Shown one piece after another: positions 1 to 39,062 of a DNA stretch of 44,420 bases. A program made the translations under genes and the position numbers. The notes beneath the pieces are model-generated. The model had not been told where the DNA came from. It worked only from the letters and a program-made list of their open reading frames with translations, and ran no database searches. The first letter of the stretch is position 1. The number at the start of each line of letters is the position of its first letter. Origin of the DNA: a virus (taxonomy: Duplodnaviria > Caudoviricetes); the IMG/VR virus record IMGVR_UViG_3300028364_000057, positions 1-44,420 of that record, one strand, 5' to 3'.

Positions 1-155
1 AGCGTATGGCTGACGGCTCTCTGACTCTCCCTACACGTGGCAGGTGAGCTGGTTAGTCCTGTAGGACTACCCAATCTTCTTCCAGTAGGTCTGTTTGTGA
101 AGCTAGCCACGGGACCTGGTTATCATCTGCTGTCTTCATGTAGATGTAAGGCAGC
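1..155. repeat. Terminal direct repeat, left copy (circular assembly overlap)
   Basis: 1-155 equals 44266-44420 except C29 vs T44294; the exact part 30-155 is 126 bp. Confidence 0.97.
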
Positions 156-313
156 GTCATTTTTGATCCTGTGTCCGGGAACTGTGCTTTCAACCACATC
201 CCTTTACTGTTCCATCCGTTTCGAGCTACTCTACGTCCTGCTTTCAGGTGCGTGAGTGCCATTTGAAACGATACTAGCGTCACGTTTGCTACTTCTTCTG
301 TAGGCTCTGACAT
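53..313 (-). CDS. tad2: DUF2829 / Thoeris anti-defence Tad2-family sponge protein
   Basis: Family motifs ALTHLKAGRRVARNGWNSKGMWL and PYIYMKTADDNQVPWLASQTDLLEEDW. Confidence 0.85.
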   Translation of the reverse strand: MSEPTEEVANVTLVSFQMALTHLKAGRRVARNGWNSKGMWLKAQFPDTGSKMTLPYIYMKTADDNQVPWLASQTDLLEEDWVVLQD

Positions 314-5100: not shown

Positions 5101-8100
5101 TCACGTCCTAGTGCTGCGTTCACCTTTACCATAGCGTCGTATAGTGCCTGGTAGAAGCGTCCCATCATAGTTGTCTGTCCCATTTCACGCCGGGCAACGT
5201 ACCCCTCGAATCCAACAGCAATTTTCTCTTCTGCTGCTACTCGTTGTCCTGCTGTCTTTGGCATTACACCACCGTTAGCAGTCTTTAGCAGCGCATCCAT
5301 GTTGAACTCCATGAACGGGTCGATCTTTCCAACTAGGTTTCGTAGGACCAAGTGGATCATTTCGTGATCTGGTGTTGTCTTGGTACTGAATGTAGGGAAC
5401 GCCATACCCATGTTGTATGACACACCGTATGCTCGGACCATTTCAATACGTCCGTGGACTAACTCTTGCTCTCCGGTATAGATGGTATCAACAAACTCCA
5501 CTGGGAAGTCCAGCTTGAATCGTCGCTTGTAGTCTGCAAGGCGCTCTGTGATCTCACCAGGCATCGCTGCGGTCATTTTGTACTGATACTCCAATGCCGC
5601 ATCCCTACCCTGCTTACGGTCGATATTTGCCGCTTTAATAGGGTTGTACTCTGAGACTCTACCCTTTCGGTTGACTCGTCGCTCTGTCGCTCTTGAACTG
5701 ACCAAGTTGTTCATCATTGTCTCTGTCTCTGACAAGTCCGGGACCGTTTGACTGTATGATCCAAGGAACTTCCCGGTTTCAGTGTCTCGAATCGGTACTG
5801 TCTTCACTCTAGCGTACAGTGGTGTCTCTTCGAGCATCATCCGTTCTCCGTTGCGTGAGATAACTGTGACGTCGTTAGTGTCGAATACTACATAGTTAAA
5901 TGTCTGCTCTTCCTGGTTTCGAGTGAATCCATCAGCGTATTTCACACCTTTAATACCGTATTCTAGCATCGCCTTACTTGCACCCTCTTGCCCTCCAAAG
6001 ATAGTAGAAGCCACACGGTAGAACTCACCACCAGTACTGCTACCCTCTGGGTTCAGTCGAGAATCGCTTTGTTGTAGTGCTTCAGCTGCGAATCGTCGGA
6101 TTTCTGCGCTTTGGTTAGCCATTGGTTCGTCCCATAGCAACATTGTCTCAATTGCTGCATCTTCGATCTCTAGCTCGTATAGGTACGCTGCTGAGTTCTC
6201 ACGGTTCCATCCTCGGAACTGCATAATGAAGTCGATATTCTTTTGGTTTGGATAGGTTGAATGTGTTCGACGTCCCTCGTATTGCTTAGTGTCCTTGTTA
6301 TAGCTCTCCACTGTTACTTCAAATAGTCCAACTGCTGGGTTCATGTCTAGTGCAATCACTCGATCTGTCTTTCCTCCCCAACTAGGTACTGTTTCACCTA
6401 CAGTAAAGTACTCTTGCAGCAATTCTGCCTGTGCTGACTCCTGGCTAGTGTCGATGGTTCGATCTCCCTTAGTGTACGTGCCTGGTTTTGCTGTTTTCTT
6501 TGTCTTTTCCACGTCCCTGTAGACGGTTGATACTGTCTCTGTGTCAGCACTATAGAATCCCCAACCAAACGCTTGGTTGCCCTCGCCTGTGTTTACAAAA
6601 TCAGTACTAGGCTGCGTGAACTCTGCGCCTGATCCGTGCCAAGTTCGTTTGTATTGTGGTGCGTGCGCTAGTGCGTAGATCGTTTCCAGCTGCTCTCTGG
6701 TTTTGATTTGGAATGGTTCAAACGCTACGTATTCTGATACTCCCTTTCCAAAGTCACTAACTACACCGTCATATCCGGCTTCTTTAATTAAATCCAGGTA
6801 CTCAGGATCATTAAATAGAAGATCTTCAAACTCCATGATCTCAGCAATACCTATGTTTTCGTCGATCCACTCTAGCGCTTCCTTGCTGTCAGTGATCTTC
6901 TCGCCGGTCATAATCTCATATAGCAGCGGCGCTTGGTCTTCGTTTGAGAATACCGCTGACTGTCGTAGGTCAATTGGATTTGCGACTGATAGGTATACTT
7001 CCTTGATCTTCATTTCCCGTTCATCACCTTTTGGTCGTGTTTTCTCTATAAAGTCTGGGATGTAGCTCTTATCATCACCCTTTAGGAAGAAGAATCCCCA
7101 ACTAGTATCTGCAGCTTCTGTATTGCTGCCCTTTTGTTTGTGATCGAATACCTCAAAGTCTGCCAGTGTTCCGTGGTAGTGAGCATCACCCTGTGCCTCA
7201 ATAAAGCTCTCCACCGTGTCATGCTCGGTAGCTTCTGCAAACAACTGATCCTGGACCTCTTGATCGTATGAACGCTTGGCACTGAACATAGCGTCGTCAC
7301 CAATAAACATATCGCTGTTTTCAGCCTTACGCTCGGTAGTGTACTCAGTGTAGTCAACCTTTCCGACGGTACTCATCTGGGTTTGCTTCTCAATAGCAGC
7401 CTTTTCTAGCGCTACGATCTGCTCTTCCTTGATAGCTTCACGCCGGGCAAGTCGCTCGTCGATCTTAGCTTCGTTCTTGGACATGTTCTCTTCGATGCTG
7501 CCAATATCAACTCCACGGTCTTTTAGCATCTGCGCTACATTAGCCAGTCGTTCTTGTGCATTTTTGATAGTAGACTCCAACCAATCCCAATTTGGGTTCT
7601 CTGCGTATCGTTCCTTGGCTTTGCGTACATCCTCCCACGCTTTGATATATTGCTCGTTCTTACGGTTGCTGTAGGCAAACTCGGACTCTAATCGACTGAT
7701 CTCGATGCCAATTTCCTGCTCTTTCATCTGGTACTCCAACTTGGTTCGATGTACCGGGTCAGTCAATAGGTTCTGCATCAGCTCTGTGTAGTCGATATCT
7801 CCGATCTCCACCACGTCGTCACCGGCTTTGATTGACTCTTCGTAGCGCTTCTCTTTGTTCTTTAGCTTCTGCGCCATGAAGATATCTACTGAGTTTTCAG
7901 TAAACATCTGGTTCACACGCACGTTTCGCCACTTGTTACCCTGTCTCCACGCTCGTCCGATCACTTGCCGGACCGCTGTAAAGTTCCACGGCTGCGATAG
8001 CATGTAGATATCAGTAGTTCGTTCCTGTAGGTTCACTCCCTCTTGGATAGCGTCTGACCCAATAATGACCTTGACCTTACCAGCGTTAAAATCTGCTTGA

Positions 8101-11100
8101 ATCTTGGGGCGGTTCTTCTTTGGTGTTTTACCACTAATGATCTTCACTTGATCCGCTTTGAGTCCCACTTCCTCGATCAGATACTTCTCAATGTATGGGA
8201 AGTACTCCACCCCAAGCGTTGAATAGATCAGCTGTCCTGAGTCTTTTACGTCCTTTAGTGTCTGCTTCACCAACTCCATTGTCAGCTTGATCTTAGGTGA
8301 TCCCTCGACAAACTGCTTGGCTGTTGGTGTTGGACCACTGTAGAAGCGACTCATGTACGGAGAAAAAGCAATTGCACGTAGCTCTCTGATCCCTTTAAGT
8401 ACACCTCCATCTTTTTTATCGTTGAATAGTGGTTGTGCTGCTGCCTTGAAGTCGTACTGATCCTGGTTTTCTGGTATCCGGAACTCACGTGTTTGTCGGT
8501 CTGGTCGCACGATCCCTGCATCTTTACCGTCCCGGAAGTCGATAAACTGTGTCAGTAACTGTTGGAACTGTTGGTAGTTCTTGAAATTACGTACATCAGG
8601 CTTCTCAGAATAGTCACCATTGGCTTTGAACTCCAATTGTGAGGTTACATCCATGAACATCGACATAAAATCGTTCACGTTCAAAATACCCATATCCTCC
8701 ATTGTCTTGCGAGCGAAGAGTGATAGGACTGAGTAGTACTCTAGTGGATGGTTTGTGAATGGTGTAGCAGACAATCCGATCACGTTTCGTCCGTTATTCT
8801 TCTCCTGGATGTATTGCGCAGCTAGCCACGTCTTTAGCCCGTATTGTGATGGTTTCAGCTGGAATCCCCGGAACTCGGTTGTTTTAGCGTCTTTATCTTT
8901 TGGCTTGGCTTTACCAATGATGTGGTTGGCGTTGTGGATCTCGTCGATAGTAAGCGCATCGAATCCTAAGTCCTCGAAGTACCGGTCGTTATCAGTCCCA
9001 CGCATCATCTTTCCAACTGTTTCCTCACCAGCGGCTTTGTCTACTTCTCGTTGTCGCTTGGTTTTGGCTGCATCAGGCTGCTCGATCACGTCATTGAATA
9101 GCGCAGTCGCTGTGTTGTAGGTTTCATCCTTGAAGCGTAGCTTCTTAAATCCCTCTTCTGTTACTAGTGAAAGTGTACCCTCTTCAATCTCTAGCGTTGC
9201 GTAGTCACCTTTGAAGTCTTCACCAAGGTTGGCTAGCTCGTTGATCTTTATATCAGGACTGATCTCTTGTATCTCAGTGATCCACTGTTTGTACACGTTA
9301 ATGTTTGGTAGAACGATCAGCGGCTTCTTAGCCCACCCTCTTTCGAGCATTTCCAAGTTGGCAACAATCCCCTGCATAGTTTTACCTAGCCCAACATCAT
9401 GTGCGAGTAGTCCTACTCCACGGTTCATAAGAAAACCAACTCCGTACTGCTGTACTTCCCGGAGATCTAGCGGCTTGCCTTTGAACGTACTTGATACGAT
9501 CGCTCGTAGTGGGACCTGTCTATAATCAGGCTTGTAGTACCCGTTAAACGCTGTGTTGTACTTCTGCTCAACCTCTGCCTGCTGCTCAGGTGTTAGCTCA
9601 TCTTTTAGGAACTTACTAAACAATTCATCACCTACTGTCCGCCTAGTCCGTCGATCCTGTTCGTTTTTCAGCTTGTCACTACCTCGGACCGGCGTACCGT
9701 TGGTGTACCCTCGAACGTCATACTGTGAAGAATCACCGAACGCTGACTGTGGTAGGTCTTTGATCCAGCCAAGGAACCGTTGCTGCAGCGACTTGTTTGC
9801 TAGCATTGTCACCTCAGCAAATCGTGTGTGTGGTGAGATACGCATACGATTAACTGTCATACGCTCAGGAATAACCGCTTCTAGCATCGCTTTTTGCTTT
9901 TCGTACTTCTCAGGTGTTAGCTCTGACTTGTCAGCTTCCAGCGTATTGAGTCGAGAATAGATGTTTCCTTGCACGTAGTTGAACTCGTTATAGTACTTCC
10001 CGTCCATGTAGAACGCTGTATCTGCATTAAAGTCTCCGGCTAGCTCTCCGGTTGGTTGTACGTACTCCCACTGTCCATTGTCGTACGCATCGACGTCAGT
10101 AAAGGTTCTCAAGTCTAGCTTACCCTTTGGCACTGGTTTGTATTCTCGTTTCGGTCGTTTCGCTTCACGGGTTTCTTTCTTGATATCAGCGCCCTCTTGC
10201 TCAATCCGACGGCTCTGTTCGTCTACCGGCTCTAGTGTCTCAGTCTTCTGCATTTCTTTATGTAGGTTCTCATCAGTCAGCGTTTTCAGCTTCTCACTAG
10301 AATCAACTGGTTCTTTCACCTCTTTACCGTTGGTTTCAATTTCTGCTTGTGTGTCTAAGTCCACGTATGTCTCACTCACAATCGCTGAATTGCTTGGTAG
10401 TGCTGCAAAGTCAGTAGTATTAAATAGCTCAATCGCTGCTTCTAGTGATCCGTCAACAAACGCTTCCTGCCCAAACCGCCCGGACCGCATACCCTCGTCA
10501 CCTAGAACGTGGTTGATATTGGACCGGAAGTACATATCATCGCTGGTTGTACGCATCCGGGACGCAAAGATAGCCATACCTGACTGACTCTTCATGTCTT
10601 TGATCGCTTTCTTTTGGAATACCAGGATGTCAGTACCGATATCAGTGGTATCAAACGCACCGTTAGGTAGTCGCATAGCTGCAACCAACTCGCCTAGCTC
10701 GGCAATTGCTTTCTTTCCAGTCTCAGTATTGCCGTTGCGCAGGAACGCTGACGGGACCACCATCGCAACGTAGCCGCCCTCCTTGGTGATATCGAGTGAG
10801 CGCTTAATAAAGTAGTTCTCGTACTTACTGATCTTCGACTCTTCACCTAATCCTTTGAATAGCCCTCTGTGCTTTCCGTATGGTGGGTTACCAACTACCA
10901 GGTCAGTCTCAGACTTGTACGGTAGCTTCTTCCCGGTTTCATCCATGAATAGGCGCTCGAACGGTTGATTGAGGACCGCTATATCAGAACGCTTGGTTTT
11001 TAGTGCCTGTGACGCATCTGTGTCGATCTCGAACGCAATTACGTTGGCGCTGCTTGGTACACCCTCCAGGAAGTTACCGACTCCGGCTGCTGGTTCTACG

Positions 11101-14100
11101 ACGTTCTTACCCTCTAGGTTGAGTCCTAGCTTTCGCAGGATGTCATACGTCATTTTGACTGCTTCTGGTGGTGTCCAGTACTGATCGAGTAGCCCTCTAC
11201 CCTCTGCACCATCACGCTCTCGTCCTCCAGCTGGTACAAAGTCTGCTGCTTCCTTTATCTCAGCTTGGCTTGGTTCCTTGGTCAAGTCCACCTCGAATAC
11301 GTCGATCCCTAGATCGTTCTTGTGCTTGGTGACTGGTGCCAGCGCATCTGCAGCAAGTTCCTCTATGCTTTGCTCTGCATTTCCTCCCTCGTTTTCCGTT
11401 GCTTCCTCCCCTCTTGCATCGCCATTAGCATCTTTTGTTTCACTTTTTTTAGGTGGTTCGATGATTGTTGCGTTTTCATAGATGTCGATTATTTGTTTTC
11501 GTAAATCTGCAGTACTAAAATCACTACCAATTCTGATAGATAGTTGTTCGTCCAGCTGCTCGAATAAAGCATCTGCAAGTAGTCGTCGCTTGGTTTCGGT
11601 TGTTTTCTTTGGATAAGAGAACGAACGGACGTCGTCAAAGGTGTCTAGCGCATACTTCACATCGTCTGAGGTACGTGCGTTATCAGGAATCCAAGCCGGG
11701 AACGTAGATGGTACACCGTCCCATTGTCCACTGTCTCCTACCGGGAACCGATAACCTGGTTCTGCTAGCTCTAGTTCTACCAGTATTTCACTCAACACTT
11801 TCTCCGCTTTACTGTAGCCCTCTACGTCAGACTCACCAAGCGCAAGGTACATGGACCGCATATCACGCTCTAATGCTTCCACTTCCGCCCGTTCTACCGT
11901 CTTTGGTACTTCTTCCTGTGCTACTTCGATACTAGGCGCACTCTGAACGTCCAGGAATCCATGTGCTTTGAGGTTATCAGCCCATAGTGATAGAAATGAG
12001 TCTTTTGCCTTGATAGGGACCGCACCGCTTAATTCTCGCCCGTTTAGGACCATTGGTGGATGTTCGATGGTCTGCGCTACTAGTTGACCGTCATTGTCGA
12101 TCTGAAATACCACCTCCGGGTCACGCATGATGTCCCCGTTTTGTGTGTACACGTGTGACATAGCCAACCGGTTGTCACTAATACGCTCTATGTTTAGTGT
12201 CATGTAGCCCTCTCTCTTCACCTGGAAGTAGGTAGACTCGTTTTCTAGGTCTTCAAAGTTGTTCTTAAACATCTTTGTCACCGCCTTACCTAGCTTACTC
12301 TTTTGCTTCTCGTTGATCCTGGCTGTGGTGTTGTGCGTATATACTCCCTCAGCGTCCATACCAATACTCGCTTTACGGACCGTGATCTGTCGCATCGTGT
12401 TCTTTATTTTGAATCTACCATCAGTCCGTTTAGTGATTGTTGCACTATAACGTTTGTTATCCCCCCCCATTGGTATATCCGCAACCGCTTTTGTGATTGC
12501 AAGTGCTTCGTCGTATGTATACCCAGCTTCGTCGCTACCACTTATATAATCAGTGGCTGTTGGTGGGTTTCCAGCTTGCGCAAAGAAGTCAGCGACTACA
12601 CTCTCGATCGATCGCTCAGATGTCTCTACATCTTCCCCCTTTACGCTGCTGTCGCTAGATCGCTTTCCAGGCTCACTACTGCGCTGCTCACGCTTCCCCC
12701 GTGCCACTTCGTCGCTAGACTCTGTATTGCTTTCTCCTGGTACGGTCGATCCTGGTTCACTAACGCTGCCACTTTCGGAATCTTCTCGGCGTCGAATGTC
12801 TCGTTTAGTATCGTTATCGCTTTCATTGTCATTATTTTGCTGTTTATCGCTAGTATTGTCAAGTTTGTTCCACCAATCTAGTAGGTCAGTCCGGCTGAAT
12901 CCTTGCGCTGACTTTGCTTTGGACTTCTGCACGTCCTTAACAAACTGATCGAACGTCGGCGCTTCTTTAGCTAGTCCAAATAGTACTGGGTTCACATTGT
13001 TCATAGCAGCTTCACCGTCTGATAGCTTTGGATAACGTACTTTATCGTACTCCTGGACGTCTTCCGCTAGTTCTTTCTTGCTAGGTGTGAACTGTGTCTC
13101 TTGCTGTACATCATCAACAATGTTCTTTGCTTGGTTTGGGTCTTCCTTTCGAGCGTTTGGACTGACTGTTGCTAGGAAGTCTGACTCGATCTCACTCTGT
13201 CGATCAGCTGACTTCTCGATTTGATCCTGTAGGTTGGTAGCTTCTGTACCTTTTGCGGTCTTTGCTTTCTCCTGTAGCGCTGCTTGCTCTTCCTGGACCT
13301 GTCGGTACTCGTCTGCATAGTCACGCTCAAAGATATCCTGTGCTTCTGTGATCTGCTCTGGTGTCATGTTTTCTACACCCTCGAACGTATTGTCGTTGGT
13401 TGGTGTCTGGTTTCCTTGGACCATAGCAACTGCTCGGTCGATATCTGCTGTGATATCAGTCATATCACCCTGATCTTCCTCTCTCTGGTTATTAAACTCT
13501 TCTAGTGCCGCTTCCTGCTCGGCTGCGGTACGATCTGACTGAACATCCTGCTGGAACTGGCTATCTACTGCCCGTGCTGCGGTTTCAATGGCTGCTGGGT
13601 TCTCGGCTGCCAAGGCTTCTAGTGCGTCCATCTTAGCGTCTAACTCAGGACCAGGACCGTCTTCTGTTGCTTCTGACTGAGTATCTCCAACCGCTTCATT
13701 GACTGCTCGCCTAATCTCGTCACGGGTTCCCTCCGGTAGTGCGTCGATCATCCGTTCTGTATAGTCGTCTGCCGCTTCACGTTCTTCACGTGGTGTCATA
13801 GCCTTACCAGCTGCCTGGAATACCAAACCTCCGATCATACCAAGGATAAACGACTGCTGACTCTCTGTTCCAAAAATATCAAACTCTTCACCAAGCGCTT
13901 TCTTTGAAATATAGCTTTGGTATACCTCCTCCCCTCCCTCTGTAGCACCAGCGGCTGCCATTTCTAGCGCTTCTACTACGATCCGTCCCCAAATAGTCTT
14001 TGTACCAGCGGCAATCTTCCCAATAGGTGTTGCAGCTACTGCCAACTGAAACGCATCCAATCCAATTAGGTTCATGTTACCTCGATACACCTCAGCACCA

Positions 14101-14951
14101 GCACTAACAGCTTCTGCTTCGGTCATACCTTTAGCTTTGGCTGCTTCGTAGGTATCACCAGCTTCTGATAGTCCCTCAATCGGACGCATCACACCGGCAC
14201 CTGCTAGTGAACCAACTGCATACTGAACAAACAACGGGTACTTAGCCAGCATCGCTGTCTTTGCAACTGCACCTGTGACTCCTACACCGGGAATCATCAA
14301 CGCAAGACTAGGAACTAGCTGCTCTGGTGCCTTAGTTAGCCAAAAATCACCGTAGGCAAGCGCTGCTACAGGGTCTTCATTAAAAATACGGTCAATTTCT
14401 TTTGATCGTTCCGTCTGTAGCGCTGTCGTCATGCCCTCACCAGCGCCTGATAGCCATTCTCCGGCTTTAGAGTACGCTTTCCATAATCCACCACCTGATC
14501 CTAGTTTACTCCCCGTATCAGTCCCTTTTGCACCCAAATACGTTAAAGCAGAACCAAACATAGACGCAGTATTTCCAATACCACGGTTGGCTGACGCTAG
14601 TAATTCGTTCACTCCCCGGCTGTATGTGTTCCAGGCACCAGCTCTTTTCTTTTGCTCACGGTTGATATCACGGTTGATATCGCTGTCGATCCCACCAACT
14701 AGCTTCTGAATGTTCGGCGACGATGCTTGGTACGATGGCGCTTCAAACTTCTTGTTGGCGTTAGGGTTATAGTCCGGGACCGTATGTTGTTGACTCAAAA
14801 TAGCCTGGACCTGCCAAGCTGTATTGTATTTCTTAGCACCCTCACGGTCACCGCCTGTCCTGGCTGTTTCCATGCGACTTCTAGCTGGTGTAGGACGGGT
14901 AGGTGTGTCTGGTTCCGTCGTAATCTTAGAGAGGTCTATATTTCTTGACAT
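2157..14951 (-). CDS. 4264-aa DarB-like large polyvalent (probably virion-ejected) protein
   Basis: Gly/Ala hydrophobic N-terminus; DUF6908-like segment (GYMTLNIE..SHVYTQNGDIMRDPE); amino-MTase (YWTP, EPAAGVG, NPPY); SNF2-like helicase (HDVGLGKT, DEIH, SATP, QVIGRAWRQGN); two ART-PolyVal-like domains (YHGT, WHGS..GEGNQAFGWGFY); HEMIH; helical C-terminus. Confidence 0.88.
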   Translation of the reverse strand: MSRNIDLSKITTEPDTPTRPTPARSRMETARTGGDREGAKKYNTAWQVQAILSQQHTVPDYNPNANKKFEAPSYQASSPNIQKLVGGIDSDINRDINREQKKRAGAWNTYSRGVNELLASANRGIGNTASMFGSALTYLGAKGTDTGSKLGSGGGLWKAYSKAGEWLSGAGEGMTTALQTERSKEIDRIFNEDPVAALAYGDFWLTKAPEQLVPSLALMIPGVGVTGAVAKTAMLAKYPLFVQYAVGSLAGAGVMRPIEGLSEAGDTYEAAKAKGMTEAEAVSAGAEVYRGNMNLIGLDAFQLAVAATPIGKIAAGTKTIWGRIVVEALEMAAAGATEGGEEVYQSYISKKALGEEFDIFGTESQQSFILGMIGGLVFQAAGKAMTPREEREAADDYTERMIDALPEGTRDEIRRAVNEAVGDTQSEATEDGPGPELDAKMDALEALAAENPAAIETAARAVDSQFQQDVQSDRTAAEQEAALEEFNNQREEDQGDMTDITADIDRAVAMVQGNQTPTNDNTFEGVENMTPEQITEAQDIFERDYADEYRQVQEEQAALQEKAKTAKGTEATNLQDQIEKSADRQSEIESDFLATVSPNARKEDPNQAKNIVDDVQQETQFTPSKKELAEDVQEYDKVRYPKLSDGEAAMNNVNPVLFGLAKEAPTFDQFVKDVQKSKAKSAQGFSRTDLLDWWNKLDNTSDKQQNNDNESDNDTKRDIRRREDSESGSVSEPGSTVPGESNTESSDEVARGKREQRSSEPGKRSSDSSVKGEDVETSERSIESVVADFFAQAGNPPTATDYISGSDEAGYTYDEALAITKAVADIPMGGDNKRYSATITKRTDGRFKIKNTMRQITVRKASIGMDAEGVYTHNTTARINEKQKSKLGKAVTKMFKNNFEDLENESTYFQVKREGYMTLNIERISDNRLAMSHVYTQNGDIMRDPEVVFQIDNDGQLVAQTIEHPPMVLNGRELSGAVPIKAKDSFLSLWADNLKAHGFLDVQSAPSIEVAQEEVPKTVERAEVEALERDMRSMYLALGESDVEGYSKAEKVLSEILVELELAEPGYRFPVGDSGQWDGVPSTFPAWIPDNARTSDDVKYALDTFDDVRSFSYPKKTTETKRRLLADALFEQLDEQLSIRIGSDFSTADLRKQIIDIYENATIIEPPKKSETKDANGDARGEEATENEGGNAEQSIEELAADALAPVTKHKNDLGIDVFEVDLTKEPSQAEIKEAADFVPAGGRERDGAEGRGLLDQYWTPPEAVKMTYDILRKLGLNLEGKNVVEPAAGVGNFLEGVPSSANVIAFEIDTDASQALKTKRSDIAVLNQPFERLFMDETGKKLPYKSETDLVVGNPPYGKHRGLFKGLGEESKISKYENYFIKRSLDITKEGGYVAMVVPSAFLRNGNTETGKKAIAELGELVAAMRLPNGAFDTTDIGTDILVFQKKAIKDMKSQSGMAIFASRMRTTSDDMYFRSNINHVLGDEGMRSGRFGQEAFVDGSLEAAIELFNTTDFAALPSNSAIVSETYVDLDTQAEIETNGKEVKEPVDSSEKLKTLTDENLHKEMQKTETLEPVDEQSRRIEQEGADIKKETREAKRPKREYKPVPKGKLDLRTFTDVDAYDNGQWEYVQPTGELAGDFNADTAFYMDGKYYNEFNYVQGNIYSRLNTLEADKSELTPEKYEKQKAMLEAVIPERMTVNRMRISPHTRFAEVTMLANKSLQQRFLGWIKDLPQSAFGDSSQYDVRGYTNGTPVRGSDKLKNEQDRRTRRTVGDELFSKFLKDELTPEQQAEVEQKYNTAFNGYYKPDYRQVPLRAIVSSTFKGKPLDLREVQQYGVGFLMNRGVGLLAHDVGLGKTMQGIVANLEMLERGWAKKPLIVLPNINVYKQWITEIQEISPDIKINELANLGEDFKGDYATLEIEEGTLSLVTEEGFKKLRFKDETYNTATALFNDVIEQPDAAKTKRQREVDKAAGEETVGKMMRGTDNDRYFEDLGFDALTIDEIHNANHIIGKAKPKDKDAKTTEFRGFQLKPSQYGLKTWLAAQYIQEKNNGRNVIGLSATPFTNHPLEYYSVLSLFARKTMEDMGILNVNDFMSMFMDVTSQLEFKANGDYSEKPDVRNFKNYQQFQQLLTQFIDFRDGKDAGIVRPDRQTREFRIPENQDQYDFKAAAQPLFNDKKDGGVLKGIRELRAIAFSPYMSRFYSGPTPTAKQFVEGSPKIKLTMELVKQTLKDVKDSGQLIYSTLGVEYFPYIEKYLIEEVGLKADQVKIISGKTPKKNRPKIQADFNAGKVKVIIGSDAIQEGVNLQERTTDIYMLSQPWNFTAVRQVIGRAWRQGNKWRNVRVNQMFTENSVDIFMAQKLKNKEKRYEESIKAGDDVVEIGDIDYTELMQNLLTDPVHRTKLEYQMKEQEIGIEISRLESEFAYSNRKNEQYIKAWEDVRKAKERYAENPNWDWLESTIKNAQERLANVAQMLKDRGVDIGSIEENMSKNEAKIDERLARREAIKEEQIVALEKAAIEKQTQMSTVGKVDYTEYTTERKAENSDMFIGDDAMFSAKRSYDQEVQDQLFAEATEHDTVESFIEAQGDAHYHGTLADFEVFDHKQKGSNTEAADTSWGFFFLKGDDKSYIPDFIEKTRPKGDEREMKIKEVYLSVANPIDLRQSAVFSNEDQAPLLYEIMTGEKITDSKEALEWIDENIGIAEIMEFEDLLFNDPEYLDLIKEAGYDGVVSDFGKGVSEYVAFEPFQIKTREQLETIYALAHAPQYKRTWHGSGAEFTQPSTDFVNTGEGNQAFGWGFYSADTETVSTVYRDVEKTKKTAKPGTYTKGDRTIDTSQESAQAELLQEYFTVGETVPSWGGKTDRVIALDMNPAVGLFEVTVESYNKDTKQYEGRRTHSTYPNQKNIDFIMQFRGWNRENSAAYLYELEIEDAAIETMLLWDEPMANQSAEIRRFAAEALQQSDSRLNPEGSSTGGEFYRVASTIFGGQEGASKAMLEYGIKGVKYADGFTRNQEEQTFNYVVFDTNDVTVISRNGERMMLEETPLYARVKTVPIRDTETGKFLGSYSQTVPDLSETETMMNNLVSSRATERRVNRKGRVSEYNPIKAANIDRKQGRDAALEYQYKMTAAMPGEITERLADYKRRFKLDFPVEFVDTIYTGEQELVHGRIEMVRAYGVSYNMGMAFPTFSTKTTPDHEMIHLVLRNLVGKIDPFMEFNMDALLKTANGGVMPKTAGQRVAAEEKIAVGFEGYVARREMGQTTMMGRFYQALYDAMVKVNAALGRDLPGLQKFYFAVATGKNKRQSIKLHANPVRAARVRFETPDGIKYLDFGAIKREKDYEDSLGRQALFNSILDQSVNQPEVINSVRKDINMFENLLAQSRDLYLKDPEEFKAADLYETVAENQDADKEMLDAMMAENIQDYMKLKSKDRARVDEILWRGDSLGKEFSDQEIIQMGMTTQQQKAYKGVRYALDVAHEMLLQEMRGKGMEEAEIDAFRQERKGYMPHKWKYPYVVKHQKMNEGGGYQTYLMESFKTEKLAQERSQQLANESQDALTRFEIDKLQSLEVDFFGSQELTSERMIPVIENMKEKGFIRDDVSRILRNQLVDMFKEKGFGRHYLRRTGVGGYDTNRTPEVIANYFSGFSGYISKMRHSTAYFDALSKIDARRQPEFFAWQRDAIIYKLNNKPEDIYIPIPTGKDQTMSISMRGMTFAYFLANDLSYLATNATQNFIVGLGEMSKYYEGAGKIAGPEKDLVKAMFDYSSGRISAHERIVIDQMLKKGHLGAEMSAELTGFKNNPVYSEISSRFSKLLFKSTAIVEQNINRIPSFLAMYRHFKAQGMTNAEAQRKSKEVSDDIHFRYGRQHRPRAFRGRLAVVFVFQHYIRSFLFQLYRDASRGEFVALTRKMAYTSVIGGVTALPFAKLMIEIFRKLVGDDRDEEEIMRELDTWEIALTRGIPAAYTGIDLSSRVGIGLMTVDSILDNPSDVRSYIGATGSLLFKRLPQGIDMLGQQRYADAAGKLLPDVFANPIKAVTGYSWGVRSSSGNPLLDANGDPYKYNTWEALIRATGYTPTQEAILWDQRVQTWKAQDNITAGRTDVRRTIQGMVGRGDIEAARELQATSQESGIISENTDYVKEFREDDLMANAVAQFEASDKGRGAISQIEDELIDELYNGKVTDLQRNNVRKELAVYRQYGLNNEYVDDIMRLRSNADKVQYLTELEAEIGEEAFQEFYKLGRRKIRTEAGSMVPILFSDNLNKELRKAN

Positions 14952-28310: not shown

Positions 28311-28529
28311 AAAATTGAAACTACAGTGAATAATGAATCTTGAACTAAAAAAAACACTACCAACAATGGTGTGTCCTACGGTCGTTTTCTTGCGTGGTGA
28401 CCAACCCAGATAAGTTCAGGAACCGTTTTGCGTGATCGGTAACAGTGAATTGTGTGTGCCTGTCAGATCGTGAGTGTTGGAACACCGAGTAAACTCAGTG
28501 TCCCTCACTCGCTCTCTGCACAAGGTACT
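28311..28529 (-). ncRNA. Structured ~220-nt capsid-operon leader or sRNA
   Basis: Long hairpin GGGACACUGAG/CUCGGUGUUCC, two CACGCAA-loop hairpins and an internal terminator. Confidence 0.55.
28347..28376 (-). terminator. Intrinsic terminator within the leader (attenuator-like)
   Basis: GGACAC-ACCA-UUGU-UGGU-A-GUG followed by 8 U. Confidence 0.6.
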
Positions 28530-28534
28530 CCGTT

Positions 28535-28543
28535 ACTATAGCA
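28535..28543 (-). promoter_or_regulatory. Extended -10 promoter TGC-TATAGT
   Basis: Predicted +1 at ~28529, the base of the first hairpin. Confidence 0.6.
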
Positions 28544-28583
28544 CACAACACCTGGACCATTTTGGTCAAGTGGACAATATGGT

Positions 28584-28592
28584 TGTGGATAA
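28584..28592 (-). promoter_or_regulatory. DnaA-box consensus TTATCCACA
   Basis: Exact 9-mer in intergenic DNA ~40 bp upstream of the capsid promoter. Confidence 0.4.
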
Positions 28593-28701
28593 GGTGCCTA
28601 CGCTGAGGTAAAGGGGTAGTCGAGTATAAGTCGGCTGAAAGCACGTATTCCCCTCAGTCACTGGCCTTTATTCCGTGCTTACCCCAGCGTAGAAACCTTA
28701 T
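28589..28701 (-). ncRNA. 113-nt end-paired pseudoknotted RNA, unknown family
   Basis: AUAAGGU/ACCUUAU and CUACGCUGGGGUAA/UUACCUCAGCGUAG closing stems; GCACG/CGUGC crossed by AGGGG/CCCCU; own -10 element. Confidence 0.6.
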
Positions 28702-28707
28702 TTATTA

Positions 28708-28716
28708 AATATATCA
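28708..28716 (-). promoter_or_regulatory. Extended -10 promoter TGA-TATATT
   Basis: Predicted +1 at ~28701, the first base of the closing stem. Confidence 0.5.
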
Positions 28717-28755
28717 CAAACAAAGCAGCTTCCACTTTGGTTATGTGGAAGCTGC
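28717..28755 (-). terminator. Intrinsic terminator of the terminase-portal-scaffold operon
   Basis: Perfect 11-bp stem GCAGCUUCCAC/GUGGAAGCUGC then UUUGUUUG. Confidence 0.8.
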
Positions 28756-28854
28756 CTTAATAGAAAACAGGCTAGCAGCTGAAAGCATAGCCCGTTTTCT
28801 GAGAGTATTTACACACCCGAATTGTCACGAATGTTACAAAGTGACAATCGTATA

Positions 28855-29682
28855 CTACTCTTTATTTTCAAGGATTTCCAGCATTTTCTTCACAGGTAGC
28901 TCGCTTTTTACGTCACTCACTCCCCACAGCTTACGTTCTCCGTCGATCTTCACCTGTTCGATGATCGACAACAGCGTTTTCGTTACATTGTCTACCGTGT
29001 TTCCAATAACTGAGAAGACAGATGCTGCTTCGAGAAACGTAATGTTGTGCTTCTCGAACGTCGGCACGATGATGCGGCGCATGATATCCCGGAAGACTAC
29101 GAACCCTTTTGAGTGTTTGTAGACTATATCTTCTAGGTAGGCTTGCATCTTCTGCGCCCTGGCTTCTATTTCCTTTAGTTTAACTGGATCGTCAGTATTC
29201 CCGGCTTCCACACCAAGCGCATGTAGCTTCCTCTCCACCTTGTCCATTTCCTCAGTCTTATTAAAGTCACGTTCACTAGGCGTTAGGTTCGACTCTTCTG
29301 CGATCAATCCCATTATCTCAATCGCACAGGCGACTACTCGCTCGTCAAACTTCACGTCAGTAGTAACTTCTTCAAGCAGATTGGAAGTGGTGGTCAATAA
29401 CTGACAAAGGTACTGCACATCACCATAGCGTAGGTCATTATCAGTAATAATGGTACGCATGTTCTCAGCAACAAACGTCCGGTACTGCTCATGCTCTTTG
29501 TCCTGCTTGCTTTTGTTGTCGTAGTCTTCTGTCTTGTAGTTATGTTTGAAGTCAAACGTAGCCATCTGACGGAACACCTCGTTGACTACCGGGACCACTC
29601 GATCCTTACGCTCTTGCGTAAAGTCTCGCTCGATCCCTAAGTCTTTCTTCTGTTCTTCGTTCAGTTGTTGTGGGTCAGACAT
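28855..29682 (-). CDS. Hypothetical helical protein with a loose internal duplication
   Basis: 275-aa ORF with TATG start in operon. Confidence 0.7.
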   Translation of the reverse strand: MSDPQQLNEEQKKDLGIERDFTQERKDRVVPVVNEVFRQMATFDFKHNYKTEDYDNKSKQDKEHEQYRTFVAENMRTIITDNDLRYGDVQYLCQLLTTTSNLLEEVTTDVKFDERVVACAIEIMGLIAEESNLTPSERDFNKTEEMDKVERKLHALGVEAGNTDDPVKLKEIEARAQKMQAYLEDIVYKHSKGFVVFRDIMRRIIVPTFEKHNITFLEAASVFSVIGNTVDNVTKTLLSIIEQVKIDGERKLWGVSDVKSELPVKKMLEILENKE

Positions 29683-34150: not shown

Positions 34151-35936
34151 CCCCGAAGCGGTCGTCAACAGAGTTTTGGCTGTTAGTAATTGCTTGGACG
34201 TCGGCAGAACTTTGTGCTTGTCCCAAGCCGTCAGTTTGTTCCAGTAGAAATGTTAGTGCAAGTGCATCGTTTTTGTTTGGAGACTTGATCCGTAGCTTGT
34301 TCATTTCCTGCTTACTCATCATCTGCACCTTATTGCCCTGTAGCGATCGCTTATACCGTCCCGATGCTAGCTGTTCCGCAAAGTCAGAGTTCTCGACGTT
34401 GTTATCTATTACCCGTCCCCCTTTCATAATCCAGTCACGCATCCGGAAGTGCATCAGTGATCGTAGATTGAGGAACCGACACTGACCTCCCTCTTCCACT
34501 TCACTTTCAAATAGCACAAAGAACTCAGCGTTGGTCTTACTTTCATCAGTTGGTCGGTTACCAGGCAGCACAATGTACACGTCTATCTTGCCCTTAGTGG
34601 CTTTTGATATCCGTTTAGCTACCGACACACCAATACCGAAGCCCTCGATCACGATATCACCCGTTTTGAGGTTGTAGCGGTCAATGAACGTCAGTAGGTT
34701 CTCAGCAATAACCGCATCGTTGGTGGTATTGAGAGTCAAAATGTTTTTAGCCCGGAAGCTATCACGCAGCACGAACTCACACTCATCATCACCCTCACCA
34801 GACGGGTCAATCGCAAGGAACTTCTTACCAATGAACTTATCGTTCTCAGCCAGTGACGGTTCCACGTTGATCCGGGTCCGAGGAATAAGCTGCAAGTACC
34901 CACTATCATCCATCATATCCTCACTAGGGAACTGTCCCAGCACACGAATCCGGTACTCATCTGACTCTACACCGTGTCGCTTTGCTTGCCGCTGCACGTA
35001 CCGAGAGTCCACTACCGGCGATTGCTCACAGTTGAAGTGGAATGTTTGCCAATCCTCAGAGTTCTTGTGGTGACTATCAAAGAAGTACCCGATCACTCTA
35101 GTAGGGTTAGAAATCATCACTACTCCCACGTTACCGGATGTAAGCGCACCCTCAGCCGTGTTATATACCTGCTCAGGCACCCCAGACGCTTCATCTACAG
35201 CAATTAGCACGTGTTCCGAGTGAACACCAGCCAAGGCTTCTGTATTCTCCTTAGAGGACGTTTTAGCACGTGCGAACCATGTCTCAGGATCATGCTTCAT
35301 ACGAATGTAGTCACTCTTCCAGTCAAATACCTCCCGGACACGCTCGTTCTTGATCCGGTTGATCCATAGAGACAACTCTTTCCACAACACATCGTGCATC
35401 TGTCCTGACGTTGGTGCTGTTACCGGTACCTGCGCTTGGAAGTAGCAATACAGGAACCATAGAACGATCCAGGTCATAGTGGCTGACTTTCCAATACCGT
35501 GACCAGAACGCACACTGATATGAAACGACACATCCTTGCTGCGAGTAGCTTTCTCTACACCCAATAAGATCAACGTCTGTTGCCAGGTGAGGTTGCTACC
35601 CTTAGTAAATCCATGCCAGGACCATATCCAATAGCCATCAGGTACCTGTACACCATGTCCGAACCACTCAGCCTGTACTGTTTCTTTGAGTCGTAGCCAG
35701 TTCTTACCCTCAGCACGCATAACAGCTTCCCAGGCTTCTTTGTACTCCGGTAGTGGTTCCTGCGGTATAAGTCCCCACATCACCTTAATGAAATAGAGGA
35801 TTGACTGTCTAAAATTGTGAATCTCACCAGCTACCGAACCAATAGCGTCCACTGACGTAGGACTAGGACGTGATACCGGCTTCCCTTTGCGCTTGGCTTT
35901 TGGTTTCCGCTTGGCTATTTTGAGTTTAGTCTTCAT
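34143..35936 (-). CDS. terL: Terminase large subunit
   Basis: Walker A SGHGIGKS, Walker B AVDEA, ISNP, nuclease AIDPSGEGDD and SPNKNDAL. Confidence 0.93.
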   Translation of the reverse strand: MKTKLKIAKRKPKAKRKGKPVSRPSPTSVDAIGSVAGEIHNFRQSILYFIKVMWGLIPQEPLPEYKEAWEAVMRAEGKNWLRLKETVQAEWFGHGVQVPDGYWIWSWHGFTKGSNLTWQQTLILLGVEKATRSKDVSFHISVRSGHGIGKSATMTWIVLWFLYCYFQAQVPVTAPTSGQMHDVLWKELSLWINRIKNERVREVFDWKSDYIRMKHDPETWFARAKTSSKENTEALAGVHSEHVLIAVDEASGVPEQVYNTAEGALTSGNVGVVMISNPTRVIGYFFDSHHKNSEDWQTFHFNCEQSPVVDSRYVQRQAKRHGVESDEYRIRVLGQFPSEDMMDDSGYLQLIPRTRINVEPSLAENDKFIGKKFLAIDPSGEGDDECEFVLRDSFRAKNILTLNTTNDAVIAENLLTFIDRYNLKTGDIVIEGFGIGVSVAKRISKATKGKIDVYIVLPGNRPTDESKTNAEFFVLFESEVEEGGQCRFLNLRSLMHFRMRDWIMKGGRVIDNNVENSDFAEQLASGRYKRSLQGNKVQMMSKQEMNKLRIKSPNKNDALALTFLLEQTDGLGQAQSSADVQAITNSQNSVDDRFGVL

Positions 35937-36534
35937 GTTCAATGATAGTTACCTCATCCTGTCCCAACTTGTCTGCAGTCTCGTACACTGATCGTACCAC
36001 TCCAAGCGTATGGGTATGATCGTTCTGCTTCCGTTCCGTCATATCGTGGTCACTCATTAGGATCAGTCCGGCAGTCTTCGAGTTATAGGCACCAGATACA
36101 CCAAAGGACGTTAGATACTCGTATTGCACCTGCTTTATGATCTTTAATGCCCGGTTGAAGTCCGGGTACTTGCGAGCGTACCCAGGGAACACTTCGATAC
36201 TTTGTCCCAGGTATAGCGCATATCCTTGCTGCGATGGTAGTCGAATGGTTGTCACCGGTACTGTAGCGTCAGCCACACGTCGCATACGTGGCAGGTGAGA
36301 GTCCTCACAGTATTTTAAGTATTTATATAGCATCGACGTACACCACTCCGGTTTGTACTTGGTCTTACGCTTACTCTTTTTATCTTTAGTAGTTACGTCA
36401 AAGACTCGACAAGTTGCCGAGCAGTATGGTTTGAAGAGATCATCCAGGAACGAACCCTTACATTTATCGTAGTGGCACGTCGAGAGGACTACCTTTTCTT
36501 CTTTTTGTTTTGATACAGCTTTTCTACTACCCAT
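35926..36534 (-). CDS. terS: Terminase small subunit (P22 gp3-like) with N-terminal Cys cluster
   Basis: TKYKPE..PSQQGYALYLG..YARKYPDFNRALKIIK..SGAYNS; upstream of terL. Confidence 0.75.
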   Translation of the reverse strand: MGSRKAVSKQKEEKVVLSTCHYDKCKGSFLDDLFKPYCSATCRVFDVTTKDKKSKRKTKYKPEWCTSMLYKYLKYCEDSHLPRMRRVADATVPVTTIRLPSQQGYALYLGQSIEVFPGYARKYPDFNRALKIIKQVQYEYLTSFGVSGAYNSKTAGLILMSDHDMTERKQNDHTHTLGVVRSVYETADKLGQDEVTIIEHED

Positions 36535-36562
36535 ATAGACGGGTACCTTGCGTGAGAGAGTA

Positions 36563-36765
36563 TGCCCGTGAATGGATTTGCACCATTGAGATAGAGGAAG
36601 TGAGGTGGTTGAACTAATTCATTTAGTTTTGAATACTCACCGTTACTGTATAGCCTTGATCCGGCTCCACACCGGACTAGTGGAGATTGTTGATTACAAC
36701 GTAGTGATCTTTACGATCGAAAAATGTCTCCCTCTATCTTTCTGCATGGCTGATATGCCACGGGC
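36563..36765 (-). ncRNA. 203-nt tRNA-like RNA with a large insert in place of the anticodon loop
   Basis: Acceptor GCCCGUG/CACGGGC+A; T arm AAUGG-UGCAAAU-CCAUU; GCAU/AUGC arm; 12-bp AGAUAGAGGGAG/CUUCCUCUAUCU stem. Confidence 0.72.
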
Positions 36766-36797
36766 AGGTGCTGGTAGTCGTACGTACCAGCTCTTTG

Positions 36798-36806
36798 ATT
36801 ATAACA
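36798..36806 (-). promoter_or_regulatory. Extended -10 promoter TGT-TATAAT for the tRNA-like RNA and packaging operon
   Basis: Perfect TGn-TATAAT just after a terminator; predicted +1 at ~36791. Confidence 0.7.
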
Positions 36807-36807
36807 C

Positions 36808-36840
36808 AAGAATAAAGGACCCCAGTTACCCAGGGTCCTT
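36808..36840 (-). terminator. Intrinsic terminator
   Basis: AAGGACCCUGG-GUAA-CUGGGGUCCUU then UAUUCUU. Confidence 0.75.
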
Positions 36841-36851
36841 GTATATGGGGA

Positions 36852-37013
36852 CTATTTGCTTGGTGGTTGACGTAGATCGTCTTCCTCTTTATCTTTCTGC
36901 TTACGCTTGCAGCGTGGTCCACAGAACAAACGATCGTTGTACTCCAACATGCTGTCCTCAAACTGGTTGGAACCACACTGATAGCAGCGTGCTATCTCGA
37001 ACCGGGCAGTCAT
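36852..37013 (-). CDS. 53-aa Zn-finger protein (not in ORF track)
   Basis: MTARFEIARCYQC...FCGPRC; ATGA overlap with the upstream gene. Confidence 0.7.
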   Translation of the reverse strand: MTARFEIARCYQCGSNQFEDSMLEYNDRLFCGPRCKRKQKDKEEDDLRQPPSK

Positions 37014-37216
37014 ACCTCAGAGTAACGAACTGGTAGCTCGTCCCTCCACTTATCCCGGCATCGAGTACCACAGAAGTGTTCAGACACGATCCCGTTGGTA
37101 GCTGTTATCGCTTGTGAAGCACGAACCGTCTGATTGCAGCCAGTCCAGCCACAGCTGAGGTTACCAAACAACTCGTCGTCGCTTGGTGGTAGATCAATTG
37201 GCAGTTGTGTATGCAC
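37010..37216 (-). CDS. Zn-finger protein (CxxxxC...FCxxxC)
   Basis: CGWTGC and FCGTRC; AAGGAG SD with GTG start. Confidence 0.7.
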   Translation of the reverse strand: MHTQLPIDLPPSDDELFGNLSCGWTGCNQTVRASQAITATNGIVSEHFCGTRCRDKWRDELPVRYSEV

Positions 37217-38028: not shown

Positions 38029-38544
38029 CTAGTCCCTGATTAGAGTAATAAGGTGATAATGCGCATGTTGCGGCTGACTTTGACCAATAGTGAAGTTCTT
38101 TAGGATGAAGTCATACTGTCGATCCTTTTCAAACTTAGCGTATAACCAATCACGCTCTTGTATCTCGAAGCCTGTTAGCTCGTTTATATCAGCTACGTGC
38201 CGCTTAGGGACGAGTAAGTGATGAACTGTAGCAATTGCATCATACGGGTAGTTATTCTCGATTAGCAGCCAGTTTTGGAACTCCTGGACCACTTCATATC
38301 CCTCACTATCACACATAAAACACTCTCCCTCCTGCCGCCTTGGTGCATTTTGGTATCGTTTCCAGCAATCAGCGCTACGTAGGTTCGTTCCTTGTTGTGC
38401 TTTACTAGTCTTACTACCCTGATAGGCAACCATCATAGCCCTTTCCGCATCACCCATAGTGGGATGAACTGATAGAGTCTCCACCTTTTCGACGTGATAC
38501 TTGTTAATACCTCCCTTTTTTGTCCGATAGATTGTGCTTATCAT
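38029..38544 (-). CDS. HIT-family nucleotide hydrolase
   Basis: CFMC, NNYPY, HHLLVPKRHV, HAHYH histidine triad. Confidence 0.85.
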   Translation of the reverse strand: MISTIYRTKKGGINKYHVEKVETLSVHPTMGDAERAMMVAYQGSKTSKAQQGTNLRSADCWKRYQNAPRRQEGECFMCDSEGYEVVQEFQNWLLIENNYPYDAIATVHHLLVPKRHVADINELTGFEIQERDWLYAKFEKDRQYDFILKNFTIGQSQPQHAHYHLITLIRD

Positions 38545-39062
38545 AGTTTAATTTGTATTTTGATTAGAACTAGTAGCTGTTAGTAGTAGGCCAGGTTGCT
38601 CGCTTAGGTGTTCTGATATCGTTCTACCGTCTTGCATGATGGTATAGGGTAGGAATATCTGTGGAATGGTCACCATGTTGATCTCCACTAGCGCTAGCTG
38701 TGCATCTATCCAGGCGTAGATCACACGCCACGCAGTACGAATAGCCTGGTTATCAAGGCTTTTATCTTTGTGTCTCACGCTAGTTATACCTTGCTGGTCA
38801 AACACTTCCCGGACCGCACGCCAGTTGCATGGCAATTGAAAGCCCATTTCTCTACCGTCTATACGTAACTGAAAGCTGACAGCACTTACTTGCTTACCAT
38901 CGTACTCAGTCATCATCTTAGTGACGCCATACTCGCTCAACATCACTTGGATCTCACCAATGGTCTGTTCTGCCGGGACTGTAGTGGTGTAGTTTTTAAT
39001 CATATTCAACGTGATACTTGTTAATACCTTCCTTTTTTGTCCGATAGATTGTACTTATCATA
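38492..39062. repeat. 54-bp direct repeat (38492-38545, 39009-39062) flanking one gene
   Basis: 52/54 identical; both copies encode MISTIYRTKK(G/E)GINKYHV. Confidence 0.93.
38548..39003 (-). CDS. Hypothetical phage protein
   Basis: NYTTTVP..TIGEIQ..QAIRTAWRVIYAWIDAQLA..FLPY; ATG at 39003. Confidence 0.75.
   Translation of the reverse strand: MIKNYTTTVPAEQTIGEIQVMLSEYGVTKMMTEYDGKQVSAVSFQLRIDGREMGFQLPCNWRAVREVFDQQGITSVRHKDKSLDNQAIRTAWRVIYAWIDAQLALVEINMVTIPQIFLPYTIMQDGRTISEHLSEQPGLLLTATSSNQNTN

Follow-up and report, generated by a model that had tools for sequence, protein, structure and literature searches.

A structured RNA gene at the head of the terminase block

The window analysed here is a whole virus record of 44,420 bases (CheckV completeness 92%). 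On its minus strand, ahead of the terminase genes, it carries a 203-nt RNA gene, numbered along that strand from G1 (position 36765) to A203 (position 36563). The elements that frame the RNA and the main genes of the phage are listed below.

36815..36840, minus strand: intrinsic-terminator-like hairpin with 11 pairs, 6 of them G-C, and a T-rich tail
36798..36806, minus strand: extended -10 promoter, TG-N-TATAAT (TG at 36806-36805, hexamer at 36803-36798), with no -35 box
36766..36791, minus strand: 5' leader with a 7-bp hairpin (36791-36770) and U at position -1
36535..36562, minus strand: 28-nt trailer, which is the terS 5' UTR; it has no Shine-Dalgarno sequence and can compete with the acceptor stem
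35926..36534, minus strand: terS, first gene of the terS-terL-structural block, with its ATG at 36534
35942-34143, minus strand: terL
27844-26825, minus strand: capsid gene; tail protein genes also lie on this strand
2157-14951, minus strand: DarB-like polyvalent protein of 4264 aa with methylase, helicase, ART-PolyVal and DUF6908 matches
53-313, minus strand: Tad2-like gene, by family match

The assignment of terS was supported by Pfam (GP3_package, PF16677, E 3.9e-9) and PHROGs (phrog_606 and phrog_3064) and that of terL by PHROGs, which bears out the position at the head of the packaging operon proposed in a sequence-only reading of this DNA. The upstream terminator, the extended -10 and the leader hairpin described there were all present, and no terminator was found on the minus strand in the 28 nt between the end of the RNA and the terS ATG. 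The DarB-like protein and the Tad2-like gene are probably counter-defence cargo.

Judging from its sequence, the hairpin at 36815-36840 would close the upstream early/middle genes, and a related phage, L011, has a hairpin in the matching slot, before its terS promoter. The extended -10 element was not listed by the sigma-70 scan because that scan demands a -35 box; similar -10 motifs stand ahead of other gene blocks of the phage (43739, 39883, 37363 and 28543) and also before terS in L011 and L058. The late transcript presumably starts near 36792, and the segment 36766-36791 is presumed to be a leader that RNase P would remove. Two ORFs across the RNA, 36734-36976 on the minus strand (which crosses the terminator) and 36605-37036 on the plus strand, had no family match and were rejected. 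The likelier upstream gene is a 53-aa ORF at 36852-37013, without a Pfam match.

The host of the phage probably belongs to the Patescibacteria, to judge from promoter type, scarcity of Shine-Dalgarno (SD) motifs and one terL relative. The phage promoters lack -35 boxes and are of the extended -10 type, an SD-like motif was found in only 4 of 32 phage ORFs, and one terL relative sits in a metagenome-assembled genome (MAG) of Ca. Taylorbacteria; two further terL loci lie in MAGs labelled otherwise, one as Gammaproteobacteria and one as Methylomirabilota. For these reasons, the Patescibacteria (the class of the Taylorbacteria MAG and its phylum) were taken as the comparison set. A terL match was found in 1 of 401 genomes of the presumed host class, and 2 of 151 genomes matched the replication protein; Atlas taxa gave no pointer to a host.

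The RNA combines the top half of a tRNA with a stalk and a structured insert

The 203-nt RNA gene is real. Its fold has a z-score of -4.32, none of 200 shuffles was equally stable, and the RNA ranked second among 112 minus-strand windows of 203 nt, 111 of which formed a grid over the record. It is composed of the following elements.

36759..36765, minus strand: 5' strand of the 7-bp acceptor stem (G1, C2, C3; no G3-U70)
36744..36758, minus strand: D-like arm of 4 bp with a 7-nt loop, stacked straight on the acceptor; positions 8-9 are missing
36728..36739, minus strand: 5' strand of a 12-bp stalk that replaces the anticodon arm
36601..36727, minus strand: 127-nt cargo insert (MFE and centroid folds)
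36718-36706 and 36700-36689, minus strand: small cargo hairpins
36685-36652, minus strand: competing hairpins or a possible pseudoknot
36628-36612, minus strand: last cargo hairpin
36589..36600, minus strand: 3' strand of the stalk, followed by a single C (36588) and then the T arm
36571..36587, minus strand: T arm of 5 bp with a 7-nt loop and G at position 55
36563..36570, minus strand: 3' strand of the acceptor stem (36570-36564) and discriminator A73; CCA is not encoded

The acceptor stem with C3-G70 and A73, the 12-bp helix in the place of the anticodon arm and an insert of about 125 nt had all been described correctly from the sequence, and the D-like and T arms appear in both the MFE and the centroid folds. 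Acceptor pairing has a probability of 1.0 when the transcript ends at or just past the RNA and of 0.05-0.91 once terS sequence is included (5 contexts). The stalk, which is 92% complementary with one G-U pair, has a probability of 1.0 in 7 of 7 contexts, and the D-like arm reaches only ~0.6. The T arm is the sole descriptor-positive one within the whole record.

Of the four hairpins proposed in the insert, three are present in the MFE and centroid folds, whereas the fourth (RNA 81-86/96-101) has a probability of only ~0.24 and competes with a 7-bp hairpin at RNA 89-107 that reaches 0.69. An H-type pseudoknot cannot span a 6-bp stem with a 0-nt loop, and the pseudoknot proposed between UCCGG and CCGGA (RNA 90-94 with 102-106) would have exactly this geometry; its strands are better drawn as an alternative hairpin. 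A different pseudoknot, combining 81-86/96-101 with 88-91/111-114 and having loops of 1, 4 and 9 nt, is geometrically possible.

Compared with tRNA (RF00005), the RNA has the 12-bp acceptor/T branch with its discriminator and lacks the 5-bp anticodon stem with a 7-nt loop, U8/A14, the variable loop and a match for the 15-48 pair. Its junctions measure 0, 4 and 1 nt, where those of tRNAs measure 2, 1 and 4-5. Rfam gave no match for the whole record at E <= 1 or for a 301-nt region around the RNA at E <= 10, and ARAGORN called neither a tRNA nor a tmRNA gene in the RNA region; at a threshold of 80% ARAGORN returned noise (707 tRNA calls in 60 sequences). These searches agree with the earlier description of a non-decoding tRNA mimic outside known families. 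Since it has no anticodon, the RNA probably cannot decode. The D-like arm was not accepted as an anticodon arm (CAG, Leu), since A32 and C37 are wrong and no D region lies ahead of it.

A rare D/T elbow signature is intact

The AG of the D-like loop (36751-36750) matches G55 and C56 of the T loop, and the D/T elbow, 18-55 and 19-56, is intact as a base signature. To see how this couple behaves in genuine tRNAs, we can turn to two sets. In the first, G55 was accompanied by a D-loop AG in 24 of 24 cases and U55 by GG in 37 of 37. The larger set comprised 167 tRNAs parsed from 183 (L107-L136, L138-L169 and L187-L262), in which G55 cases had been deliberately enriched by pattern searches; under a stricter rule, 57 of its 58 G55 tRNAs carried AG only, whereas none of the 109 U55 tRNAs did (51 had GG only and 58 both or other motifs). 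The G55 loop motif was present in 26 of 61 presumed-host-class genomes, against 2 for the reversed control. No published description of the G55/AG couple was found in the literature search. The intact elbow argues for selection on tRNA shape.

Relation to known tRNA-like RNAs

The RNA is not a sequence member of the tmRNA, tRNA, YrlA or T4 RNA C families. In architecture, but not as a sequence family, it is T4 RNA C-like. The 139-nt rnaC and 119-nt rnaD of T4 (NC_000866, 70908-71171) are likewise phage non-coding RNAs, and RNA C, which is stable and has a canonical T arm adjoining its paired 3' strand, shares with the 203-nt RNA a T arm, paired ends, long arms and the lack of an anticodon arm; ARAGORN misses both. 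However, the long arms of RNA C stand in for the D and anticodon arms, whereas the 203-nt RNA keeps a D-like arm and has a perfect 7-bp acceptor and one stalk that opens into a multi-hairpin loop. Furthermore, the T4 RNAs lie in a tRNA cluster and the 203-nt RNA stands alone before terS. There is no sequence similarity to rnaC or rnaD (best match 8 nt, E 0.31; 8.4 bits under our model R1). The function of RNA C is stated as unknown in PMC3014915 and PMC12685909.

Class II-like tRNA-Leu and tRNA-Tyr have in common with the RNA the 7/5 acceptor branch, A73 and a single C before the T arm, and a G1-C2 start was commonest in tRNA-Tyr and tRNA-Leu among the tRNAs fetched (13/17). Unlike class II-like and irregular tRNAs, including the irregular tRNA polycistrons and allo-tRNAs described in PMC5389517, the RNA has no anticodon arm, is not of the 8/4 or 9/3 type and holds a 127-nt insert. 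In the Y RNA YrlA, the order is permuted so that the T arm precedes the D arm, and Ro60 is encoded no more than 4 kb away, whereas the 203-nt RNA has the normal order; there was no Ro60/TROVE match among the 44 phage ORFs scanned and no match in Rfam.

The RNA is conserved among strains but absent from the same slot in relatives

Three strain variants of the phage (L008-L010), ~98.5% identical, show one change in the 203 nt, at RNA 144 in the loop of the last cargo hairpin. The non-coding block 36535-36850 (316 nt) contains this single variable site, compared with 1.7-2.5% in the flanking genes of L008-L010; ~5.6 sites would be expected (P ~0.02, calculated by hand on related strains). These three strains make up the homologue set and, being 98.5% identical, show no covariation in the cargo, the stalk or the D arm.

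The RNA was seen in one phage species only. Searches with blastn against GenBank phages gave one 21-nt chance match, a terS search of viral contigs gave no match, and a terS alignment search of metagenomes gave 3 loci, all of them the phage itself. Five pattern scans of viral sequences (5, 1, 0, 32 and 76 loci) found no homologue; their loci were real tRNAs, chance matches and other tRNA-like RNAs. Model R1 matched none of 47 related and comparison records, in a loose first look that missed the L014 element described below (16.9 bits under R1 with filters off), and none of 151 genomes of the presumed host phylum. We found no published description of the RNA in a search of literature listings that cover few subscription journals.

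The closest terL relatives by protein are 68-73% identical (P0005-P0008), and the upstream DNA was compared across 50 terL loci from viral contigs and genomes. In L011/L012 (terL 59%), the hairpin and an extended -10 lie ~30 nt before terS with no RNA, and in L058 (terL 51%) the -10 adjoins the terS ATG, again with no RNA; the whole L011 record, searched with filters off, gave no credible match to the RNA. The slot before terS is thus empty in the closest relatives compared, and the RNA is optional.

A descriptor of the acceptor stem plus T arm found 5 matches in 141.7 kb upstream of terL; the 218 kb downstream gave 2, one of them duplicated, and 360 kb of reverse strand gave 1. Of the upstream matches, one was the 203-nt RNA and one a genuine tRNA-Pro, while L014 contributed one element and L030 two. 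In L014 and L030 (terL 45-46%), the stretch from a cold-shock-domain gene to terL holds tRNA-like RNAs in tandem that lack a D stem and gave no Rfam match and no default ARAGORN call:

L014:2990-3223, plus strand: tandem array of tRNA-like RNAs
L030:3221-3432, plus strand: tandem array of tRNA-like RNAs

L030 has a 56-nt element with G3-U70 and A73, and L014 a different element of ~70 nt in the same slot; the arrays share an 89-nt element with G55, and their middle hairpin shows compensatory changes. Moreover, tRNA-shaped RNAs of 95-128 nt that have the AG/G55 elbow but no anticodon occur in the viral contigs L155 (~409-529), L231 and L232. None of these other tRNA-like elements is a sequence homologue of the cargo. 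The earlier claim of a new tRNA-mimic class was therefore too strong, given the shared plan of T4 RNA C, the RNAs in L155, L231 and L232 and the tRNA-like RNAs of the terL relatives. Collectively, the observations suggest that phages of what are probably Patescibacteria hosts carry a class of exchangeable RNAs built on a tRNA scaffold.

Further tRNA-shaped elements with a G55 T loop, lacking either the anticodon or the D arm, were also noted in unrelated viral contigs at L003:1445-1522, L061:1664-1708 and L007:~1477-1522. The 7-bp acceptor stem of the L003 element is identical to that of the 203-nt RNA, but its discriminator is U73.

Proposed role as a processed tRNA-scaffold decoy

The acceptor/T stack and the elbow are the features of a tRNA that RNase P, RNase Z or exonucleases, and the CCA-adding enzyme recognise. 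The intact 12-bp top half and elbow support the earlier suggestion of an RNase P/Z-type substrate, although as a prediction, and we consider it likely that the 203-nt RNA is a processed, tRNA-scaffolded RNA. That it acts as a non-decoding decoy for tRNA-binding host factors is our tentative proposal, plausible but somewhat short of probable. The late promoter would give one transcript comprising the leader, the RNA and terS-terL, in which the 12-bp acceptor/T stack and the A18-G55 and G19-C56 elbow would direct host RNase P to cut at 36765. RNase Z or exonucleases would then trim after A73 and the CCA-adding enzyme would complete the end, yielding a stable RNA of 203-206 nt that would display its 127-nt cargo on a stalk, not an anticodon arm; charging by LeuRS may be possible. 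Late in infection, this product would compete in trans for factors that recognise the top half of tRNAs, candidate targets being tRNA-attacking defence enzymes, sensors, and processing or charging enzymes, and the defined 5' end of the terS mRNA would be a by-product. Processing of this type has been shown for a YrlA with a 7-bp acceptor (PMC4201824).

The decoy reading was chosen on these grounds: the cassette can be absent or exchanged, its position suits strong expression late in infection, and the phage has counter-defence genes. Anticodon nucleases fit less well as targets, since a decoy for them would be expected to keep the anticodon loop. The probability not taken up by this proposal and the alternatives below goes to other functions of the cargo in trans. 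Ever since T4 RNA C and D, phage RNAs that resemble the upper part of a tRNA have lacked an explanation, and they escape standard tools. The RNA described here is a clean case, with an intact elbow containing a rare covarying couple, its own promoter slot, and relatives in which the slot is empty or a nearby slot refilled, and offers a small molecule with which to examine whether tRNA look-alikes help phages against defences that target tRNA.

Alternative explanations

The main rival to the decoy reading is a role in cis on the terS-terL mRNA, which we regard as rather unlikely: the RNA would be a processing or timing element, acting through an RNase P/Z cut or a trailer switch, and the released RNA would have no job. 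The lack of a terminator before terS is consistent with such a role, as is the competition of the trailer and terS start with the acceptor stem in longer transcripts; given the drop in acceptor pairing when terS is attached, the fold may be a cis switch instead. With SD-like motifs so scarce in this phage, structure at the 5' end may also matter. However, a processing signal needs ~60-75 nt and not a conserved 127-nt cargo, L011/L012 and L058 use the same promoter slot for terS without the RNA, and the tRNA-like RNAs of L014/L030 stand before terL, in tandem.

An improbable alternative is that the RNA derives from a tRNA, by decay or by recent assembly, and at present has no function. Its restriction to one phage species, being found neither in the 47 records of the loose first look nor in the other terL-upstream loci among the 50 compared, would suit such a remnant. 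Against it stand the intact stems throughout the top half, the retention of the rare A18/G55 couple and the depletion of SNPs from the block.

The sequence-only reading had noted a topology resembling tmRNA and had suggested a mini ribosome-rescue RNA. As in tmRNA, a tRNA top half is followed by a helix in the place of the anticodon arm and a larger domain beyond it, and the tmRNA order of pseudoknot, spacer, short frame and hairpin is possible in the 203-nt RNA too. Unlike tmRNA, the RNA has a 4-bp D stem in place of an open D loop, a short stalk, C3-G70, a single C before the T arm and no Ala-ending tag, GAC connector or GCN resume codon. RF00023 gave no match at E <= 10, although plain tRNAs reach 23-42 bits on this model, and the RNA was accordingly rejected as a canonical tmRNA. 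Among 61 presumed-host-class genomes, 57 passed the RF00023 cut-off; in the 33 tmRNAs called from 40 loci, G3-U70 was found in 29 (2 unparsed and 2 read otherwise), a GCN resume codon in 32 and a GAC-like connector in 31, and the tags end in Ala.

The statement that tmRNAs measure ~350 nt holds for most of them, but a tmRNA of only 232 nt exists in the presumed host class. The one-piece tmRNA of genome G069 (L124:1295-1526, plus strand; RF00023 73.4 bits) is the shortest among the 57 above the cut-off, the next being ~300 nt. It has a tRNA-like domain (TLD) with G3-U70, a long helix 2, pseudoknot pk1, a 16-codon tag and helix 5, with no pk2-4, and an AG/G55 elbow, and it overlaps the end of an smpB-like ORF, identified as SmpB by eye. 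So small a message loop can therefore exist in the presumed host class. No published description of a Patescibacteria tmRNA without pk2-4 was found in a search of literature listings that cover few subscription journals.

A mimic of a mini-tmRNA, with a slim chance slightly below that of a remnant, would be charged independently of an anticodon (by LeuRS), enter stalled ribosomes and add a short tag without an Ala-ending degron, or else titrate host trans-translation. Such a molecule would be of a new build: its D arm would be of tRNA type, its acceptor would take an amino acid other than alanine, possibly leucine, and it would have a single pseudoknot and a degron-less tag of five codons. The candidate tag lies in the cargo:

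36623..36640, minus strand: speculative 5-codon tag-like frame with a GUG start, a stop in the last hairpin and UA at -5/-4

The frame begins 11 nt past the possible pseudoknot (RNA 81-114), and a descriptor of a pk1-like knot, 11 nt, UA and a frame, written post hoc, picked out 2 of 1500 shuffles and, among 21 true tmRNAs, only 10. An 11-nt spacing and A86 are described for tmRNA in PMC2481249. Minimal A73 tRNAs with D/T contacts are leucylated, LeuRS needing A73 and these contacts and not the anticodon arm (PMC9976931), and phage DS6A carries a TLD-only tmRNA (PMC4131195). Besides the absence of the tmRNA hallmarks named above, several findings argue against the mini-tmRNA. A matrix built from 20 host-class tmRNAs left the tag-frame site outside its best 6 and preferred RNA 146 (9.8 bits), from which no stop precedes the 3' end; the stalk has 12 bp compared with roughly 25-30 in G069; the first stem of the pseudoknot is the hairpin of only 0.24 probability; and no SmpB was found in the phage record (G000). 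If true, this reading would imply late rescue of stalled ribosomes with phage proteins spared proteolysis, or out-competition of the host tmRNA, and trans-translation would no longer be confined to alanine and the SmpB surface known so far.

It is very unlikely that the locus is a tRNA gene with an intron of unknown kind, from which splicing would produce a decoding tRNA. Lak phage tRNAs carry enigmatic introns (PMC6784885), and host-class tRNA-Met genes in L110, L119 and L133 hold group I-like introns of ~200-270 nt. However, excising any single segment of 108-133 nt from the RNA yielded an ARAGORN tRNA in none of 1313 cases at thresholds of 100, 95 and 90%, whereas a host tRNA-Met interrupted by a group I-like intron, treated likewise as a control, returned 59 matches in 3600, including 4 that were the expected tRNA-Met. 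There was no Rfam intron match, and positions 8-9 are missing whatever the splicing. A group I core was rejected, the candidate P7 strands being in the wrong order relative to L110/L119/L133.

A packaging RNA or pac-related structure working with TerS, TerL or the portal, as suggested earlier from the position at the head of the terminase genes, is the least probable explanation and very unlikely, because the slot is empty in the closest relatives compared, including phages of the same terS family (PF16677) with terL 51-59% identical whose promoter lies directly before terS (L011/L012 and L058), while the elbow signature points to tRNA-reading enzymes and phages often place tRNA genes behind late promoters. 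Among candidate antisense targets within the record, the best matches were of 13 nt (E 0.12) and were rejected.

Other structured and variable regions in the record and its relatives

Another structured region lies in the 545-nt gap 28311-28855 on the minus strand, which contains four strong hairpins and the best-folding 203-nt window (z -4.6), with two extended -10 motifs (28716 and 28543) and no Rfam match. Within this gap, a structured leader of ~225 nt (z -2.2) precedes a 142-aa ORF.

Two regions vary between strains. Strain L008 lacks ~318 bp at 36889-37205, a segment that covers a pair of small cysteine-rich ORFs, and a 14-nt near-copy of the RNA linker and stalk start, possibly a chance match, lies at the deletion edge (36887-36900). 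A near-duplicate of ~58 nt occurs at the starts of adjacent small ORFs (38510-38560 and 39005-39062, minus strand), at the edge of strain indels.

In the host-class genomes, the intron-bearing tRNA-Met genes of L110, L119 and L133 were missed by default ARAGORN. Among the terL relatives, translation under code 11 of the DNA upstream of terL gave either no ORF of at least 50 aa or just fragments in L049-L054, though terL itself matches; these loci may possibly have a recoded stop codon. Finally, three close terL relatives of 913-928 aa (P0007, P0018 and P0061) have Pfam matches of the LAGLIDADG/Hom_end type, which are probably inteins.
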